A stretch of 64,000 bases of DNA, from the NCBI GenBank assembly GCA_002099625.1, contig GCA_002099625.1_4857.1; one strand, 5' to 3'. Shown in pieces: positions 15,755 through 56,862 of the stretch. The number at the start of each line of letters is the position of its first letter. Position 1 is the stretch's first letter. A program made the translations under genes and the position numbers. The notes under the pieces are model-generated. The model worked only from the letters and a program-made list of their open reading frames with translations. It did not search any database and was not told where the DNA came from. The stretch comes from Escherichia coli. GTDB lineage: Bacteria > Pseudomonadota > Gammaproteobacteria > Enterobacterales > Enterobacteriaceae.

Positions 15755-15796
15755 TAAAAAATAAGAGGACTCCAGTAACCGCGAGGGTTACTGGAG
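15755..15796 (-). terminator. rho-independent terminator (approx coords)
   Basis: 11-bp stem CTCCAGTAACC/GGTTACTGGAG with GCGA loop and T-rich tail on minus strand. Confidence 0.6.
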
Positions 15797-18890: not shown

Positions 18891-18902
18891 ATCTGTAAAA
18901 AC

Positions 18903-19220
18903 TTAGTATACAACCAGTACGATGCAGTCATCGATAGCCAGATTCAGTAATGCGTAGTCGTTACTTAACCGCTGGTAACGCATCCCTTTTTCAAACTGAC
19001 TTAGTTGTTCAGTCGGCATGACGTATACCGCGCTTTGCACTACTCCCGTAAACAGTTCGTTGTAGAACTGGTCTACTTCCCCGACTTTGTAAAAGCGCAT
19101 TCTTTGATTGTTAGCAAAGACGCTGTCTAGCTTCCCGTTACTGGCTTTCTGTACCGCAGTAAAGGCACTGTCTGCATCATTACGCTCTAATGCACTTTTA
19201 ATGGTTTGAAATAAAGACAT
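18903..19220 (-). CDS. hypothetical protein (105 aa)
   Basis: GAGGAG RBS ~10 nt upstream of ATG. Confidence 0.55.
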   Translation of the reverse strand: MSLFQTIKSALERNDADSAFTAVQKASNGKLDSVFANNQRMRFYKVGEVDQFYNELFTGVVQSAVYVMPTEQLSQFEKGMRYQRLSNDYALLNLAIDDCIVLVVY

Positions 19221-19400
19221 GGTACTGCACTCCTCGTTAGGTTAAAAGTCAAGGTCAACTACAAAAAGGATGTCGGTATCCTACGGATACCTCCGTTTAT
19301 GTTCGCATCCAATACATAAACCCCCTTACCCCCGTACTCTCCTCGATTGTCAAACGATGAGATCGAAACGTAAAAAAGTGTAGTATGAGAGGAGGGTGGT

Positions 19401-20333
19401 ATGAATAAATCTAAGTCAGGGTTGCACATCTTCTCGATAGGTATCGTCGCGGAAGATAAACCTCGTGGTGCCACTCGAGTTAAAGTCATCCCTATCGAAG
19501 TTAACTTTATTAATCCTACAGCTGTCGATGCAACAGAGACACCTGTAGAGAAGCAACACAACAGTTTAAGTGGTACTGACAACCTTACTGTAAAGCAAGG
19601 TAATGCCATCACTGCAAAATGGATGAAGTCCAACAGCAACCGGGTTAACCCTCCGGATGTGAAAAAAGAAGACTACGTAAGAATCTGGCGTATCGGTGAA
19701 ACCGATATGTACTTCTGGGAAGATTTAAACAACAGTAACGTTAAGCGACTGGAAGATGGGGTATACGCCTGGTCTGCTGACCCAGTAAACCAGATGGCCG
19801 ATGACCTCTCTAACGCCTACGTACTGAATATCTCCCCGATGGATGGTCACGTTACTTTACGTACCAGTATGACTAACGGTGAGAAAAATGCGTATTTGCT
19901 CCAGCTGAATACCCGTGATGGGTTTTGCCAGTTAGTGGATGACGAAGGGCGTAAGTTCTACCTCAATTCTCCGGAGGATGACTTAGGGTTTGAAAACGCC
20001 TGCCGGTCGAAGATTAATATCAATAAAGAGGACGCTTTCATTTATGCTAAACGTTCTATTAATCTCGAGACAAAGACGATTAACGAGAAGTGCGAAACTC
20101 GCAACTCTACAGCGTCGAAAAACATGGCATGGACGACTGAAGACTGGAAGACCACATGCCCAACGAATCTATTTACCGGTAACCTGGAAGTAGGTAAGAA
20201 TTTCCTCTATAACGGCAAGGGTGAGGGTAAGGGCACATTCACAGTTACCGAATCGGTTATCGGCGGCATCACCTTTACTCTTCACGTACATACTGGCCAT
20301 GGTCCGGGCAACGACACCAGTACACCGCACTAA
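19401..20333 (+). CDS. hypothetical protein (310 aa)
   Basis: Strong RBS GAGAGGAGGG 5-6 nt before ATG. Confidence 0.7.
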   Translation: MNKSKSGLHIFSIGIVAEDKPRGATRVKVIPIEVNFINPTAVDATETPVEKQHNSLSGTDNLTVKQGNAITAKWMKSNSNRVNPPDVKKEDYVRIWRIGETDMYFWEDLNNSNVKRLEDGVYAWSADPVNQMADDLSNAYVLNISPMDGHVTLRTSMTNGEKNAYLLQLNTRDGFCQLVDDEGRKFYLNSPEDDLGFENACRSKININKEDAFIYAKRSINLETKTINEKCETRNSTASKNMAWTTEDWKTTCPTNLFTGNLEVGKNFLYNGKGEGKGTFTVTESVIGGITFTLHVHTGHGPGNDTSTPH

Positions 20334-20365
20334 GTTATTTACGTGTGTGGGGTATAATGTGACAA
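20325..20365 (+). promoter_or_regulatory. candidate promoter with perfect TATAAT -10 box (approx coords)
   Basis: GGGGTATAATG ~185 nt upstream of the small DUF1471-like gene; -35 region weak. Confidence 0.3.
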
Positions 20366-20540
20366 TAAACCCCTAACTGTAACGATAACCCGAATCGCTT
20401 GTGCACAGTTAGCCACTTTTTTCGCACAAAAGCCGGTTTATTGTCAACTAATTTACGAGTCGGGGCAGTTAATATGCCTCGAAGTACAAGTAGTTGAACA
20501 TAGGGTTCTTCTGCTATCATTTGTTAATGGAGATAAGTAA

Positions 20541-20750
20541 ATGAGCATTCGTGAAATCACCGCAGGCAGCGACGTTTCTGGTCTGGTAGAAGCAGGCACC
20601 GTTCAGGTTTCTGGACTGAGCACCGTTACCGAAGTTACCGAAGCGCTGGCTAAGAAAGCCGAAGCTGAAGGCGGCGTAGCATTTAAAGTTACCGCTTGCG
20701 GCGGCAACAACAAAATGTTCGGCAACGCCATCTATTACATAAACGCGTAA
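20541..20750 (+). CDS. small DUF1471 (YdgH/BhsA/McbA)-like protein lacking signal peptide
   Basis: 69 aa; by-eye alignment to BhsA-type mature domain: GTVQVSG...TEALAKKAEAEGGVAFKVT...NNKMFGNAIYY; in-frame stop immediately upstream of ATG excludes an N-terminal signal peptide; GGAGA RBS. Confidence 0.55.
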   Translation: MSIREITAGSDVSGLVEAGTVQVSGLSTVTEVTEALAKKAEAEGGVAFKVTACGGNNKMFGNAIYYINA

Positions 20751-20763
20751 TCGGCCTGCGGGC

Positions 20764-20820
20764 AAAAAAGATATAGGTACCCTACTCCCGTTGGGAGTAG
20801 GGTTTACCTTTTATTTTTTT
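20764..20820. terminator. bidirectional rho-independent terminator (approx coords)
   Basis: Stem ACCCTACTCC/GGAGTAGGGT, loop GTTG, A-run before and T-run after. Confidence 0.65.
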
Positions 20821-22073
20821 CGTGCTTTGTAGCGATGCATTTCAACAAATGGCTTACCCCAAGCCCCGAAAGGCCCGACGATTGCCTGCGCGTCGTTTAC
20901 CAAATTCTGGTTATACCAACGCGCGTTCCCCAACAAAAAGTTTTCCCGGTCGAAGAATGTGGTATTAAAGACCCACTCCCCTTCTTCCCAGGTCGGCCAG
21001 TACCCTACACATTTACCAATACGGTTAAAGATAGGACCTAGCGTCTTCTTCCCATCTGGGTCAGTCGGGTCTTTTAAATAGAACCGGCCCCAGATAGCGT
21101 TGTGGCTTATTCCGTGAATCTCTTTTTCGAGATACGGGTTGTCTATCGTAAAGATAAACGAGGATTCGTGCGTCAGCAACGCTTTTAACGTTTCTGAGTT
21201 ACGAATACGTTGAACGGACGTAGGCGTACTTAAATCACCTACACCGATGGCGTCCCAATCGTAATAGCGACGGGTTTCCAATACAATCTTCGCCACGCTA
21301 AGGTTTGGCAGACTCAGCATAATCGCACGGTCGCTGAAATAGCCCTGCGGTGGCAACCAATGCAGAATACCCCCGATGACGAACCCAACGGTTTTCCCTG
21401 TAATGGAATCGGGTAAGGTCAGCATTAACGAAGAATAGTAATCTCGCGTAGTATCGAGTTTGTTCATCGTTAAACTGGATATGGGGTAGGTCTTTACTTT
21501 ACCGATATTTGCCATCACCAGACAGCCAATGTCTGGCGTATTGGCACGCCGCACGATATTACCAGCGCCGGTTAAGCGAACGCCCACTGGGTCAGATTGG
21601 TGAGGTACCCACTGGCCATTGATGTTGTACAGCACCCCAGTACGGTATTTCTCTTTCCACTCATCGTCGCAGACTACAACAACGTCGTGTGCATCATCGG
21701 GATTGAAGTCCTGAGTGTAATGGTACCCAGGAGGGCACAGGTGCGTTTCTACGGGCACATCTGCATTAATAGACTGGTAGTGTGCCTCAACGAATTCGAG
21801 CTTCGGTAGGCCCTTCCCAAGCGTTGGAATCGCGATTCCTGACTTGGTGTTTAACCAATCTTGCAACGTGTCCGTACGGTTTTGTAAATCAGCCAGGTGA
21901 TACTGGCTATAGAAGGTATATTCAGCACCTAGTGCTTCTAGTCCTACTTCGAAAAAGTGGTAGTTAGCACAAAGGGTATTTAAGGGCTGCGTGACATCGA
22001 TGGTTCCCCAAGTTCGGGTGTCTCGAGAGAAGCCAAAAGCGCTGTCGGCCCGCACTTGATAAGCAGTAGTCAC
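20811..22073 (-). CDS. hypothetical protein (420 aa), divergent from the tail-fibre operon
   Basis: Long ORF with AGAGGA RBS. Confidence 0.7.
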   Translation of the reverse strand: MTTAYQVRADSAFGFSRDTRTWGTIDVTQPLNTLCANYHFFEVGLEALGAEYTFYSQYHLADLQNRTDTLQDWLNTKSGIAIPTLGKGLPKLEFVEAHYQSINADVPVETHLCPPGYHYTQDFNPDDAHDVVVVCDDEWKEKYRTGVLYNINGQWVPHQSDPVGVRLTGAGNIVRRANTPDIGCLVMANIGKVKTYPISSLTMNKLDTTRDYYSSLMLTLPDSITGKTVGFVIGGILHWLPPQGYFSDRAIMLSLPNLSVAKIVLETRRYYDWDAIGVGDLSTPTSVQRIRNSETLKALLTHESSFIFTIDNPYLEKEIHGISHNAIWGRFYLKDPTDPDGKKTLGPIFNRIGKCVGYWPTWEEGEWVFNTTFFDRENFLLGNARWYNQNLVNDAQAIVGPFGAWGKPFVEMHRYKARKK

Positions 22074-22140
22074 TGGCTGTTTCCTCTAAGGATTCGGGTC
22101 ATAGTATGAACTCGACGCCCTCAGAGAAAAGGAGTGTAAA

Positions 22141-25100
22141 ATGGCTGTCGTCCCTGACCCGCACTATCAAGAACCGGGGAATATGCAGACCGGTGAAGCG
22201 GTAACGCCGATCGGTACTAAGTACCGGATGTTGTTCCCCGCACACGCCCCCTTTTATACCACATCCCTGGTGGTCAAGAGTGGCGGCAAGAAATTAACAT
22301 TAGGTGATGATTACGTCATCACCCATGCGTACGTTACGGGCATGGCACGCACTGGCCATGTTTGTCATGGTGGTGTGTGGATTACCAACCCGAAATATCA
22401 GAGTGGCTTTACACTCGATTACCACGCAATTGGCATCGGTGAAGCCACTGCAGAAATGATCGCCGCAGAACGAGAAGCGAATAAAGATCGCTATCCCGTG
22501 GACTGCCAATGGGATAACGTCATTGGGGATTTATATTTCCCACCGGTCGATATTAAGTTCGACTGGGAAAACTGGCGTGGCGAATCCGAGTTGATGGAAG
22601 CCATTGTTGCGGTTGGCGCTAAGCTCGGTGAAGCGATCAGTCGCGTTGACCCGATTGCTCGTAACACGTTAGACCTTCAATATCGCGCCGGTGTCACGCT
22701 TATCACATCCGAGCAGTATGCGACGTACGACGGTACTGGCGGCTACACGTATAACGCGAAACGTCGTCGTTATTCGTTATCTTACCAGAACACGACGTTC
22801 AATGCGTATTCGTTAGCGGTAAAACACCGTTTACCGAGCATTCCACCGGAAACAACGTTAAACCCAGGCGAGTTGATCGATTGGATGCTCTGTTACGCAA
22901 ACGGTGGGACAAGTATCCTGCGTCTTCAGTTGAAGCAACGCGCGATTTATCTTACCTTAACGACGGCGATTGGTTCTGGTTCGTCTAATTACAGCTATAC
23001 GTTGACGACTGGCCTGACCGATACCGAGTTGGCGGGTGATATTGAGCTTAGCGTGGTCAGACGCGAAGGTAACGGCGTTTACGACATTACCGTTAAAACA
23101 AGCAAGCAAACCGTTAACTACAGCTTTAACGTTGACAACCCACCGAGCGAATTTGCACCAGGGTATCAGAAAACTGATGTCGCAAAATGGTTGAAGTTTA
23201 AATCGGGCGTCAACCTAAACTGGTGGGCAGGTGAGAACGATTACGTCCAGATTCGTTCATTACCAGGCGCACCGGCACCTGACGTTAACAACGACGTGTA
23301 CCAGCTGCTGGTAAAATATCACCAGATTGTCGATAAGCTGTACCGTGATGCACCGGCACATACGCACGTGCCGCGCAAGGATAACCCACATCGCGATTCG
23401 TGGGGCGCAATCCGTGCTTTGGAGAATAACGGTATTGCTTCGGACGCGACACTGGTATACGGAAAAACGCAACCGCAGCTGACAGATTACGTTAACAATC
23501 TGTTGCCGAAACTGTCAACGCTGGCGAATAAGCTTTTACGTTTACCGGCGGCTGCACAGTCTATCAACGGCACTTTCGGTATGAGGCCTGGCCTGACTTC
23601 GATAACGTCAGCAGTGGGTACCGATGAGTCTGAAGGAGTGGGTGCACAATTCACGGTTGACCCGAAGGTTATCCGTTTTATTGGACGCGATTCGCAAACC
23701 GTTAACGCCGGGAACAATCCGATTACATGGCAAGGTGGGGCTAACCAACTCATCCTTTATCCGGATTCCCGTGGATTGGAGTTCAACGGTAAGAAACTAT
23801 TGGACCCTACTACGGTCGGGCCGTACCTGCCGGGTAACGAGTCAGGTGGTGATGGACTGTTTTACGGAACATCCACAGCTACTGTAACCATTAACGGCAA
23901 CGGTATTCAGTCTGTTCCGTTCATTTGTACTTTTGTTCCACCGGAGTCCGACGACCTTGGCCTGATGGCTGTCCGTTTGTTGGCTACTGAATTCGGTGAT
24001 CGTGAGGACTTGGCCGCAACGCCGGCACTCATCAAGAAATTGGATCAGCAGTTTACGGGCAAGTTGGTTGCTGTTAAATCGTACATCAACGACATGCCAC
24101 TGACGAGTTCTATTTACATCGATAAAACTAACTTCGGCTTATCGAACGTACAGAACATCCCAGATGTGCAATTGCCGATTTCCCCGCTCCAACGAGCTGA
24201 GCTGGACAAGTACGCAGTCGTCGGTCACACACACACTCCTGCTGCGCTCGGGATTAAGCGTGCAACAACGACGGAGTTCGGTTTAGTACAGTTCGGCACC
24301 GCGGTTGACGATGCCACGCTGGCATTAGACGGCGGTGAGGTCATCCGACAGGCGGACGCCATCACAGAGATAGAGAAGGTTGCGAAGACAGTCGACTCTG
24401 GTGCTTCAATCAACATTATTCGTTACGGTTTACCCGGCACGGACATCATTGAAAACGGCATCACTTACACCGACTGGATGGTTACTATTAAAGCGAACGA
24501 TTATTTCGTTGGTCGCGAGTACAAAGTACCTCTCTCCACATTTAACTTGGCGGAGCTATTCCCAGCGACGCACGAAGATGCTGAGTTTGGCGTGTATGTT
24601 GACGCGGCGGGCGATGACGGCAAGTACATTATCTACGAAAATCCAAACACGGCAGAAACTGAGACGATGACCAAAATAGGTTCCATCATCACCAGTGAAA
24701 CCGGTGTGGTTTTTGTAGAAATCCGCAACGTGACGCGTTTAGGTGAGTTCCGTGAATTAGGCGAGCATATCGAGGATGATAACGCCCATATTCGTCGGGG
24801 CATGACGCAAGCTGAATTCGGATTTACTTACGGTACTGGCGGGCCTGTGTGGTCCACGGGCGCACCGGGTACAAAACGTATAGATGCCGATTGGCGTTAC
24901 GCGCAGGCTAGCAGCTATACACCTATGTTGAAAGCGGACTACGATCCGGCTGCTGATAAATGGACGTTTAAAACAACCAGTTTATCTGTAACCGATTATC
25001 GTTTTGTCCACAACACATTCCCGATGTTCCAGAATAACGGCATTACCGCAACGTGGACACCTTTAACCGCAACAGCGGACAGTGTGCTAGAAACGGTAAT

Positions 25101-36526: not shown

Positions 36527-36539
36527 CTTGTTTACGAGC

Positions 36540-36580
36540 CGGACTATGTTTATGGACATAGTCCGCTCGTTCTACTTTTT
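36540..36580 (+). terminator. rho-independent terminator/attenuator (approx coords)
   Basis: 9-bp stem CGGACTATG/CATAGTCCG, 8-nt loop, then CTACTTTTTAA; lies between fibre operon and first Cys-rich peptide gene. Confidence 0.5.
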
Positions 36581-36591
36581 AAGGAAGCGTA

Positions 36592-36984
36592 ATGGCGATA
36601 TCTATTAAAGACGTCAGAAACCGCGTCCAGATAGTCGAAGCTAACATGGCGACAGGCCCCCGTATCGACGCGCAAGTGGCCTCTAAAGCCCATAATGCGG
36701 CAGACCGATTTGGGGGTTGGACGAAAGCACAGCTAGATTGCGGCGGGACATGTTCTTGGACGTGCTCTAACGGTTGCTCGCATGGCTGTTCGAGCTGTTC
36801 AGGAAGCTGTTCTGCTTCTTGTATCGGTAGCTGTTCTTCGACGTGTGGCGGTAACTGTTCTGGTTGCTCTGGTTGTTCTGGTGGTTGCAGTAGTAGCTGT
36901 ACCGGTAACTGTTCAGGTGGTTGCGGCGGCTCTTGTTCCGCAAACTGCTCCGGGGCCTGCTCCGGCGGCTGTTCAGGTCGCTAA
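36592..36984 (+). CDS. Cys/Ser/Gly-rich precursor-like peptide P1 (130 aa): ~50-aa leader-like N-terminus plus 21-Cys repeat core
   Basis: AAGGAAG RBS; N-terminus MAISIKDVRNRVQIVEAN...; core DCGGTCSWTCSNGCSHGCSSCSGSC... with Cys every 3-4 residues; ends CSANCSGACSGGCSG. Confidence 0.65.
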   Translation: MAISIKDVRNRVQIVEANMATGPRIDAQVASKAHNAADRFGGWTKAQLDCGGTCSWTCSNGCSHGCSSCSGSCSASCIGSCSSTCGGNCSGCSGCSGGCSSSCTGNCSGGCGGSCSANCSGACSGGCSGR

Positions 36985-42574: not shown

Positions 42575-42697
42575 GGTTGTTTCCTTATAGTAGGTTTGTG
42601 GTGCATACTAAATCATTCTAAAAAATACATAGTGGGCTTAATATGACAGTAAAGTTGGCTGTTAAACAAGAAATTTTTTACCACTGAAAGGTACTCT

Positions 42698-43189
42698 ATG
42701 AAACGTCTATTTATCGTATTCGCGATTATAAACCTGTTGGCCGGTTGTGTTCAGTCGCCAAGCAACATAGGACAATTTAGCGCCACACCAGTAAAGAATC
42801 ACGACTTGGTGATTTATACATGCACAGGGACGCAGGAGAAGTTTATAGACTACCGTCCGGTTCTGGACAATCTACAGATGATGCCGCGGTCAGTAACAGT
42901 AATGGATGTGGGTGCAAACTGGGTAGCAACGTGGGACGGTGGCAAACTTGAGTCACCGATGATGTTTAAAGATGTGGTTGGCAAAATCGACGGGAATGTT
43001 AACACCACCACGGGCGAGCGTTATTACCGTATTAATAAAACAGCAAACGATAGCCCAACTTATTCTTTTTCGGATGTGAACCCACATACCGGGGAAGGTA
43101 AAGGGATGACATTCTTTCGCTGCAGCGCCGGCTTTATCGACGAAGTTCCTACGCCGATTATGATTGTTCCGTTAGAAGAAAATAAATAA
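42698..43189 (+). CDS. lipoprotein (163 aa)
   Basis: MKRLFIVFAIINLLAGC lipobox LAGC; isolated plus-strand gene with own terminator. Confidence 0.65.
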   Translation: MKRLFIVFAIINLLAGCVQSPSNIGQFSATPVKNHDLVIYTCTGTQEKFIDYRPVLDNLQMMPRSVTVMDVGANWVATWDGGKLESPMMFKDVVGKIDGNVNTTTGERYYRINKTANDSPTYSFSDVNPHTGEGKGMTFFRCSAGFIDEVPTPIMIVPLEENK

Positions 43190-55938: not shown

Positions 55939-56862
55939 TTACGGTAAGACTAATTCGAAAGCAAAGAAAATTGTTACAGCAACACCCACTCCTGATGAGT
56001 TGGTAATCCCCGCCGGGGCATAACCGTACGCATAAGCGAAAAGGTTGCTGTTCCATAAAGGAGCTAGCACGGCTGCACCTGTTTCGTTAGGCTGGGCAGT
56101 TGAACCTTGCGGCGGTATTGAATCGATGGCACCAAGACCAATAGGCGGGAACTGTGCACCGACAGGATACAAACGGCCCATTGTGTTTCGCCATTCGCCG
56201 TTGTTGTAATCCTGTCCTGAGAGAGCCGCGTCGTACGGGACTGCGTAAGGTAATCGGATACGGTACGTACGACCATCCTTCGTGACCTTACAATCTTGTT
56301 TAGTCGCCGTGGCTCCCTGCGGGACTATGATCCCGTTATCATCGGTCCCGTACATCATCCCGTACTGATACGCCATCTGTACCGAGTTGGTTTTCGAATG
56401 CATCGTCGCTGGGAAGAAGACAATTCTCCCACGGAAAATAAACTTGTGCCATTCCTGAGGGTCGTAGGTAAACATGTTTCCCTGCTGCGCAGTTAACATG
56501 AGTTTTAACTCGGCAGTATTAAAGAACTCTGTATTCGGTACTGTACCGAAATAACCTGAAGCCCAGTCACCTCGCAAAATAGTTTGCGGTCCCGGTCCAG
56601 TGTCTGGATAGAACCCTTGCGTAATCGGATTGCCGATAAGTCGTTCACTGTCTTTTACAGCAGCTACCCAATAACGATAAGTTGTATTCTTCGTCAGAGT
56701 ATCAATATCGTCTACGAACTCTACCGCGTTGCCTGATAAAGTTGCGTGGGGCGTGCCTGGATTGTAAACGTCGATTGTTGCGTTCCAACCTTCCTTGCGG
56801 TAGATTTCAATCGCGGTAAGACCTTTGCTGGCTTGGGACGGCCAGCTTAACCGTATAGTCAT
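55939..56862 (-). CDS. module gene A3 (307 aa)
   Basis: AAGGGG RBS; YPDTGPGPQTILRGDWASGYFGT. Confidence 0.75.
   Translation of the reverse strand: MTIRLSWPSQASKGLTAIEIYRKEGWNATIDVYNPGTPHATLSGNAVEFVDDIDTLTKNTTYRYWVAAVKDSERLIGNPITQGFYPDTGPGPQTILRGDWASGYFGTVPNTEFFNTAELKLMLTAQQGNMFTYDPQEWHKFIFRGRIVFFPATMHSKTNSVQMAYQYGMMYGTDDNGIIVPQGATATKQDCKVTKDGRTYRIRLPYAVPYDAALSGQDYNNGEWRNTMGRLYPVGAQFPPIGLGAIDSIPPQGSTAQPNETGAAVLAPLWNSNLFAYAYGYAPAGITNSSGVGVAVTIFFAFELVLP

Follow-up and report, generated by a model that had tools for sequence, protein, structure and literature searches.

Why should a lytic jumbo phage keep, directly behind its tail spike gene, a small gene whose product carries the domain of a family of exported bacterial stress proteins but lacks the leader that exports them? 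The question arises in a stretch of 64,000 nucleotides deposited as Escherichia coli (assembly GCA_002099625.1, contig GCA_002099625.1_4857.1), the whole of which we call the window. The 901 bases around the gene match the Salmonella phages SPLA5c and SEGD1 at 99.1% identity and SPN3US at 98.7%, and the window is an SPN3US-like, phiKZ-related jumbo phage. SPN3US itself, a phiKZ-related jumbo phage of 240 kb in the genus Seoulvirus, encodes its own virion and non-virion multisubunit RNA polymerases (RNAPs). The open reading frame (ORF) at 20541..20750 (+) of the window encodes a protein of 69 residues and 7 kDa with a leaderless DUF1471 (YdgH/BhsA/McbA-like) domain, and corresponds to SPN3US_0172 (gp172; YP_009153466.1) with 98.6% identity. 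The reading that we favour, and to which we give a probability of about one half, is that gp172 is a binding module of accessory, exchangeable character that is synthesised in the cytoplasm.

The original prediction had likened the product by eye to the mature part of BhsA/McbA-type proteins, and the HMMER comparison that it proposed bears out the family assignment. Pfam PF07338 (DUF1471) matches residues 16–66 of gp172 with E=3.3e-11 and 43.5 bits (gathering score, 27); the other phage alleles reach 50.8–68.1 bits. PHROG 8068, a family of unknown function, spans the protein end to end (E=5e-33) and is its sole PHROG match. An AlphaFold2 model that draws on nine phage homologs has a strand-helix-strand-strand (beta-alpha-beta-beta) order and a predicted local distance difference test score (pLDDT) of 84.8. 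When this model was compared with the PDB by Foldseek, six of the seven best matches were solved DUF1471 domains of YdgH, SrfN, STM1478 and YahO, the other being a related selenium-binding protein; template modelling (TM) scores against 4EVU, 2MA8, 2M2J, 2NOC and 2MA4 are 0.65–0.77. The modelled gp172 is a compact alpha/beta DUF1471 fold. RefSeq already names YP_009153466.1 a 'DUF1471 domain-containing protein', and with several GenBank records also annotating the domain, the assignment was public before this analysis.

The resemblance to the named members of the family is limited to one region. Alignments to the NCBIfam profiles of BhsA, McbA, YbiJ, YhcN and YahO cover only about positions 29–85, beginning near position 29 of 85, in agreement with the predicted match to the mature part of the bacterial proteins. 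The scores of gp172 lie far under the cut-offs of these families (McbA, 41 versus 110; BhsA, 39.3 versus 90; YbiJ, 29.7 versus 110), so that it is not an ortholog of BhsA or McbA. The same holds over the range of phage alleles, with 39–60 bits versus 90 for BhsA (45.7–60.4 for the alleles other than gp172) and 30–48 versus 110 for McbA. We therefore reject orthology on these equivalog cut-offs, despite the label 'multiple stress resistance protein BhsA' that homologs in Kwan, Wellington, Stratton and SPAsTU carry in GenBank.

A signal peptide is impossible for gp172 because an in-frame TAA (20538–20540) directly abuts the ATG at 20541, with 0 codons between them; the two follow a Shine-Dalgarno sequence, GGAG, at 20529–20532, 8 nt upstream of the ATG (features 20529..20540 (+), read from the sequence). 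The predicted lack of a signal peptide holds for the eight other phage homologs as well. Their in-frame upstream stretches run for 4–39 codons and contain no start, or only an ATG 2–4 codons upstream, and no usable hidden start or leader was found in any of the nine. The N-terminus of gp172, MSIREITAGSDVSG, is hydrophilic, and the phage proteins share a specific beginning, MSI(R/K)E. Over the first 30 residues, the maximum Kyte-Doolittle hydropathy of a 9-residue segment is 1.13 for gp172 and 0.4–2.0 among the phage proteins, whereas 60 bacterial representatives, 80–90 residues long and with the domain at about 28–85, have a median of 2.5. With no signal peptide possible, gp172 is placed by its sequence in the cytoplasm of the infected cell, where it would be both synthesised and folded.

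The bacterial members (BhsA/YcfR, McbA/YbiM, YbiJ, YhcN, YahO, SrfN, YdgH and RclB) have the same single domain of about 55 residues, and the likeness is confined to the Enterobacterales sphere. Unlike gp172, which is not exported, they carry a Sec leader; a periplasmic leader has been stated for bacterial DUF1471 proteins, and YdgH needs a periplasmic location for its function (PMC11705850). Unlike the bacterial genes, too, gp172 sits in a phage tail module with putative phage promoters. PADLOC gave no match of gp172 to a known defence-system component. Among the literature searched on BhsA and DUF1471, no paper paired 'BhsA' with 'jumbo', and none of the 20 papers listed on DUF1471 and phages dealt with a phage-encoded copy of the domain.

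The leaderless form is a property of a phage lineage rather than of one genome. Searches by tblastn listed 32, 14 and 29 phage records with a homolog, in partly overlapping lists, and all of the hosts are Enterobacterales: the carriers infect Salmonella, Escherichia, Erwinia, Cronobacter and Proteus. Whereas a word-indexed homolog search reached only close phage relatives, an exhaustive profile search of 1.84 billion representatives also reached bacterial members and other alleles, and returned 71 relatives. The leaderless proteins among these 71 are those of phages together with a few calls that are incomplete at the 5' end or mis-started; the rest are typical bacterial pre-proteins. Leaderless proteins of the CR5 type have also been deposited as 'Salmonella enterica', and the contigs that encode them, at about 224 kb, are as long as the genome of a jumbo phage. 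Genomes of CR5-like jumbo phages may therefore often be assembled along with those of Salmonella isolates, owing to contamination or to a carrier state.

Gene order is conserved together with the protein. The spike gene is followed by a spacer of 200–400 bp, a leaderless DUF1471 gene of 66–78 codons, a convergent gp171-like gene and a gene for a large tail protein. The same arrangement is found in Seoulvirus, Machinavirus, Derbicusvirus (CR5), Wellingtonvirus (Kwan) and Erskinevirus (phiEaH2) and in metagenomic contigs; in Kwan, one additional small ORF flanks the DUF1471 gene on each side. Conserved and in synteny within the tail module of five genera, gp172 is not a recent pick-up from the host. 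We found no gp172 homolog in the stretch of phiKZ searched (165–205 kb, which includes the spike gene) or among the solved chains of the PDB, phiKZ baseplate entries included. An ancestor of the enterobacterial jumbo-phage clade probably acquired the gene from the DUF1471 family, which is specific to Enterobacterales, after which the leader would have been lost. A neighbour-joining tree of the phage and bacterial domains was too noisy, given their shortness, to tell a single origin from several, and was not used.

Within allele types, the homologs have a ratio of nonsynonymous to synonymous substitution rates (dN/dS) of 0.10–0.25, which indicates purifying selection. Because peptides of gp172 have been detected by mass spectrometry (described below), because of this dN/dS ratio and because of the synteny in five genera, gp172 is neither a chance ORF nor a non-functional remnant; it is a genuine, translated and selected single-gene cassette. 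On the opposite strand, a 61-codon ATG ORF at 20335–20520 (−) spans the whole spacer between the spike gene and gp172 and overlaps conserved promoter motifs; it is very probably spurious.

Although fixed in position, the gene exists in two types. Type A comprises the alleles of the window and SPN3US, pEa_SNUABM_29 and Caitlin (73–81% mutual identity) and type B those of SPAsTU, Machina and phiEaH2 (83–88%), with only 40–48% identity between the types. This split conflicts with the similarity of the flanking genes. The SPN3US type and SPAsTU share 73% identity in the spike and 84.5% in gp171 but 42% in the DUF1471 protein, and Caitlin and Machina share 78%, 72% and 45%, respectively; SPAsTU and Machina are 65% and 62% identical in the two flanking proteins but 84% in the DUF1471 protein. 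The two types have thus been exchanged independently of the spike and gp171. Whereas the coding sequence tracks the allele type, the promoter and 5' leader track the phage lineage. Wellingtonvirus also has a tandem paralog, Kwan gp190 (L007 3787–4347 in Erwinia phage Kwan), directly downstream of the 73-residue DUF1471 protein's gene; it consists of a leaderless DUF1471 domain and a tail of about 120 residues, acidic, of low complexity and apparently disordered. The pattern of exchange is typical of accessory host-interaction genes and speaks against close structural contact and co-evolution with the spike or gp171.

How the gene is transcribed bears on the same question. The original prediction had described a monocistronic unit running from a perfect TATAAT to a strong bidirectional terminator. 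The insulated single gene and its terminator stand; the TATAAT at 20353..20358 (+) as its promoter does not. A sigma-70 scan of positions 19000–22500 returned 0 promoter-like sites; the hexamer has no -35 box, and it is directly preceded by GGG and not by the TGn of an extended -10 element. TATAAT is not enriched in the window (20 copies versus 28.7 expected), nor is it conserved, being GATAAT in pEa_SNUABM_29 and absent in Caitlin and SPAsTU. We therefore reject a sigma-70 promoter at this site. Phages of the phiKZ type transcribe with their own RNAPs, independently of that of the host (PMC7598289), and the conserved elements upstream of gp172 are of phage type.

Two such elements lie in the spacer. 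P1 (20338..20361 (+)) has the form TTTAC-N15-TGTG (TTTAC GTGTGTGGGGTATAA TGTG) and begins five bases past the spike stop codon; by analogy, transcription would start at G20361. The TATAAT falls inside its spacer, the last T of the hexamer being the first T of TGTG, and the same element comes after the stop codon of the spike gene in pEa_SNUABM_29, SPAsTU and Caitlin. P2 (20452..20476 (+)) has the form TTTAC-N16-TATG and lies 65 nt before the ATG, with a start by analogy at G20476. SPN3US, pEa_SNUABM_29, Caitlin, Kwan, phiEaH2, SPAsTU and Machina all have it, 65–90 nt ahead of the gene and embedded in diverged flanks. Of the five genera compared, four retain P2; comparison of the upstream regions did not find it in CR5.

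The motif is a recurrent feature of the genome. TTTAC-N15-T[AG]TG occurs 26 times in SPN3US, 18 of the copies lying in non-coding DNA, which makes up 7.3% of the sequence, and each other spacing from 8 to 25 gives 1–7 copies. In the window, copies with either 15 or 16 intervening bases are found at 306–283 (−), 11968–11945 (−), 20338–20361 (+), 20452–20476 (+), 36531–36554 (+) and 42677–42700 (+). The genes behind the motif are mainly non-structural and include those for thymidylate kinase (tmk), a helix-turn-helix (HTH) protein, a GNAT protein, an SMC-like protein and an exoribonuclease; the motif also heads an operon with the virion-RNAP subunit gp218 and the head protein gp248. One copy, a TTTAC-N15-TATG, lies 38 nt upstream of a 130-codon ORF at 36592–36984 (+) of the window, equivalent to 143828–144220 (−) of NC_027402.1, whose product matches PHROG 6085 (E=5e-40); the RefSeq record of SPN3US has no coding sequence there.

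In phiKZ, middle promoters have been described as having AAanTTACc centred near -24 and, in some cases, TATG where transcription starts (PMC4666361). If the final G is taken as +1, the TTTAC of our motif falls at -23 to -19, matching this geometry. The resemblance extends to an A/T-preceded TTAC element 15–16 nt before T(A/G)TG and to the genes served, which are mostly non-structural or encode virion-RNAP subunits. The SPN3US-type motif differs from that of phiKZ in its core, TTTAC(G/A), in its strict N15 spacing and in accepting TGTG beside TATG. P1 and P2 are probably middle-class-like promoters read by a phage polymerase. The literature searched contained no published promoter map for SPN3US-type phages.

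A separate, extended early-type motif, TTCAGATATATATTACYTAGGTGA, has four perfect copies in SPN3US (NC_027402.1), at 56299, 65418, 94244 and 223282. Degenerate copies precede RNAP genes and lie before the genes at 15768 and 29014, and a variant lies near position 18899 (−) of the window; upstream of gp172 the motif is absent. Its core equals TATATTAC, which we take to be the early-promoter element of phiKZ. Some genes, such as the HTH gene at 94310 of SPN3US, bear both motif classes in tandem.

At its other end the unit is closed by a bidirectional intrinsic terminator at 20764..20819, made up of an A-run, a stem-loop at 20779–20803 (ACCCTACTCCC GTT GGGAGTAGGGT) and a T-run. The stem is G+C-rich and 11 bp long, with a folding z score of -4.05, and none of 200 shuffled sequences folds as well. 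The terminator is common to gp172 and the convergent gp171, whose last lysines are encoded by the T-run. The hairpin is kept with altered stems in Machina and CR5 and is scored on both strands in pEa_SNUABM_29. The 207-nt leader of gp172 has no match in Rfam and as a whole is not unusually well folded (z=-1.9). Between P1 and P2 it contains a weak hairpin, CTAACTGT...ACAGTTAG, followed by T6 (20375..20424 (+); -9.4 kcal/mol, z=-1.4). Clean intrinsic terminators occupy the equivalent place in Erwinia relatives (L004 2875–2896 and L003 2903–2926). A hairpin and T-run thus recur 60–190 nt past P1 and end just before P2 (window 20361–20424; L004 2750–2900; L003 2740–2930), in a weak form in the Salmonella phages. 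The stretch from P1 to this hairpin, which lies between the spike gene and gp172, could yield a short non-coding RNA; alternatively, the hairpin could terminate the spike operon.

A single gene set between two tail genes with promoter-like elements and a terminator of its own, bearing a domain related to a host family and with alleles swapped apart from the flanking genes, recalls phage morons. It differs from sporadic morons in being fixed at one locus in five genera under purifying selection, and in that it is probably transcribed by the phage RNAP, not that of the host. The carrier phages are lytic, so the rationale of lysogenic conversion that applies to morons is lacking here.

The mechanism that we propose is as follows. 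The phage's own RNAP, and not host sigma-70, would transcribe gp172 from one or two middle-class-like promoters, P1 and P2, to the shared bidirectional terminator, and these signals of its own would separate its expression from that of the late tail operons that flank it. The product is most likely a small soluble domain that binds an envelope- or stress-related component of the host. Part of it may travel with virions, either loosely attached or in low copy.

The evidence on that last point conflicts. In a mass-spectrometric study of CsCl-purified SPN3US virions by Thomas and colleagues, gp172 was represented by 4 unique peptides and 6 spectra with 81% coverage and a spectral count relative to mass (SC/M) of 0.86, and was called 'the smallest SPN3US virion protein'; it was also the sole wild-type virion protein missing from 47(am1) particles (PMC5694885). 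The same 2017 data set contained 8 spectra of gp173 (34.6 kDa) and 35 of gp171 (47.6 kDa) (PMC5694885). In 2023, virions purified on double CsCl gradients and analysed with a more sensitive instrument yielded 102 phage proteins, trace non-virion ones included, and gp172 was not among them; nothing smaller than 10.5 kDa was detected, and the gels had been run over only about 1 cm (PMC10052503).

Several points weigh against an accessory cytoplasmic binding module. The non-detection of gp172 in 2023 may be technical, and its SC/M of 0.86 is comparable to those of gp170 and gp171, so it could be a true stoichiometric tail component. That gp172 stays beside the spike in five genera may indicate a functional link with the tail. 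The promoter assignment, for its part, probably holds but is built on motif statistics and analogy with phiKZ; and since a middle-type motif also precedes the genes for the head-packaged gp218 and gp248, this promoter class does not exclude packaging. Nor is any binding partner or phenotype known for a phage DUF1471 protein.

The main rival is that gp172 is a true low-copy tail or baseplate protein, or an ejected virion protein, carried by the contracting tail into the zone of the outer membrane and periplasm, where DUF1471 domains normally act and where it would aid penetration or modify the envelope. We regard this as a serious possibility, although not one that we would bet on. A protein assembled into particles in the cytoplasm needs no leader, and the periplasm, to which such a particle would carry it, is where YdgH functions (PMC11705850). 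The 2017 detection and the loss of gp172, alone among wild-type virion proteins, from 47(am1) particles favour it, as does the position directly after the spike in all five genera. Its absence from the more stringent 2023 proteome speaks against it, as do the lack of co-variation between allele type and the spike or gp171, and the putative promoters of a non-late class that, with the terminator, would keep it from being co-transcribed with the tail genes.

Upstream of gp172, gp173 (19401..20333 (+)) is the central tail spike, or cell-puncturing protein: it matches PHROG 3216, 'baseplate assembly protein' (E=2e-122), and, by phmmer against the PDB, the phiKZ spike gp164 (6ORJ/9XPH; E=3e-27). 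Its C-terminus, encoded at 20100–20333 of the window, aligns with the Mu gp45 needle, HVHTGH corresponding to HIHRGD (HxH). The convergent gp171 (20811..22073 (−)) is a baseplate protein that matches PHROG 3337 and phiKZ gp130 (9XQD; phmmer, E=4e-11), an outer-baseplate connector beneath which fibres attach (PMC13250141). Both gp173 and gp171 were placed in the 'Tail' class of the 2023 proteome (PMC10052503).

In phiKZ, the slot of gp172 holds gp163.1, a PAAR-like spike tip, which is likewise a small gene (88 codons versus 69) directly after the spike and which makes a virion role for gp172 conceivable. The two differ in other respects. Whereas gp163.1 has a PAAR_motif (PF05488, 28.7 bits) and shares an operon with gp164, from which 9 nt separate it, gp172 has the DUF1471 fold and lies 207 nt downstream of the spike with promoter-like motifs of its own. 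Pfam finds no PAAR domain in gp172, and tblastn finds no homolog of gp163.1 in SPN3US (best E=0.73). Spike tips of the PAAR type, such as phiKZ gp163.1 and T4 gp5.4, cap a blunt beta-helical spike; the Mu gp45 needle is self-capped. We reject gp172 as a PAAR-like spike tip on account of its different fold and of the Mu gp45-like HxH apex that the spike itself bears, which makes a tip protein unnecessary. An HxH needle in the SPN3US-type spike, with no PAAR protein detected by tblastn, and a PAAR cap in phiKZ amount to different solutions for the spike tip.

A bolder form of virion delivery would join packaging to host interaction. The leaderless protein might be packaged with the tail or the ejected proteins, perhaps in dependence on gp47, and enter the envelope, or the early infection vesicle derived from the inner membrane, by mechanical delivery; its two exchangeable alleles would then reflect an arms race with a variable component of the host envelope. 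We consider this unlikely. If true, gp172 would reach the compartment of its host family without Sec, as an 'injected periplasmic effector' of the phage, and could offer a first molecular clue to the binding targets of DUF1471 domains.

A small acidic protein whose gene adjoins that of a tail fibre or spike is often a chaperone, and gp172 might be a small assembly chaperone or adaptor for gp173, gp171 or the gp168–170 fibre paralogs that is largely absent from finished virions. Its conserved position in the tail module would suit such a role, and inconsistent detection in virions would fit carry-over. However, gp172 has no similarity to known families of tail assembly chaperones, PHROG 8068 being its only PHROG match; its alleles have been exchanged independently of the putative clients; its promoter class is common mostly to non-structural genes; and isolated DUF1471 domains are monomeric, with no chaperone role known. 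A chaperone is thus very unlikely.

The model with which this locus was first described, a host-derived moron that sigma-70 transcribes from the TATAAT and whose cytoplasmic product is a decoy for, or regulator of, the stress and biofilm network of BhsA and McbA, accounts for a leaderless, DUF1471-like, monocistronic gene with a terminator and a TATAAT upstream but is scarcely credible, because that hexamer has neither a -35 box nor a preceding TG, is neither enriched nor conserved and is separated from the ATG by 183 nt that include a hairpin and T-run, because phiKZ-type transcription is independent of the host RNAP (PMC7598289), and because no cytoplasmic partner of DUF1471 proteins is known and gp172 scores well under the BhsA and McbA cut-offs. 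What the original prediction had observed is otherwise confirmed, save for the significance of the TATAAT, and its interpretation is supported in part.

In summary, gp172 is a phage version, without leader, of a family already described, and database annotation and a single proteomics paper had made part of this known; with the identity of the domain already in RefSeq, the gain is one of interpretation and not of discovery. DUF1471 proteins form a large family specific to Enterobacterales that has been linked to stress, biofilm and outer-membrane permeability (PMC11705850). Here, a leaderless subfamily is kept at one locus by the tail spike across a clade of nucleus-forming jumbo phages. The promoter analysis predicts two classes of transcription motif in SPN3US-type phages. 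For SPN3US, a genetically tractable model for which amber mutants exist, gp172 adds a candidate host-interaction gene, and for the DUF1471 family it offers a minimal, natural variant of 7 kDa with which binding partners may be found.

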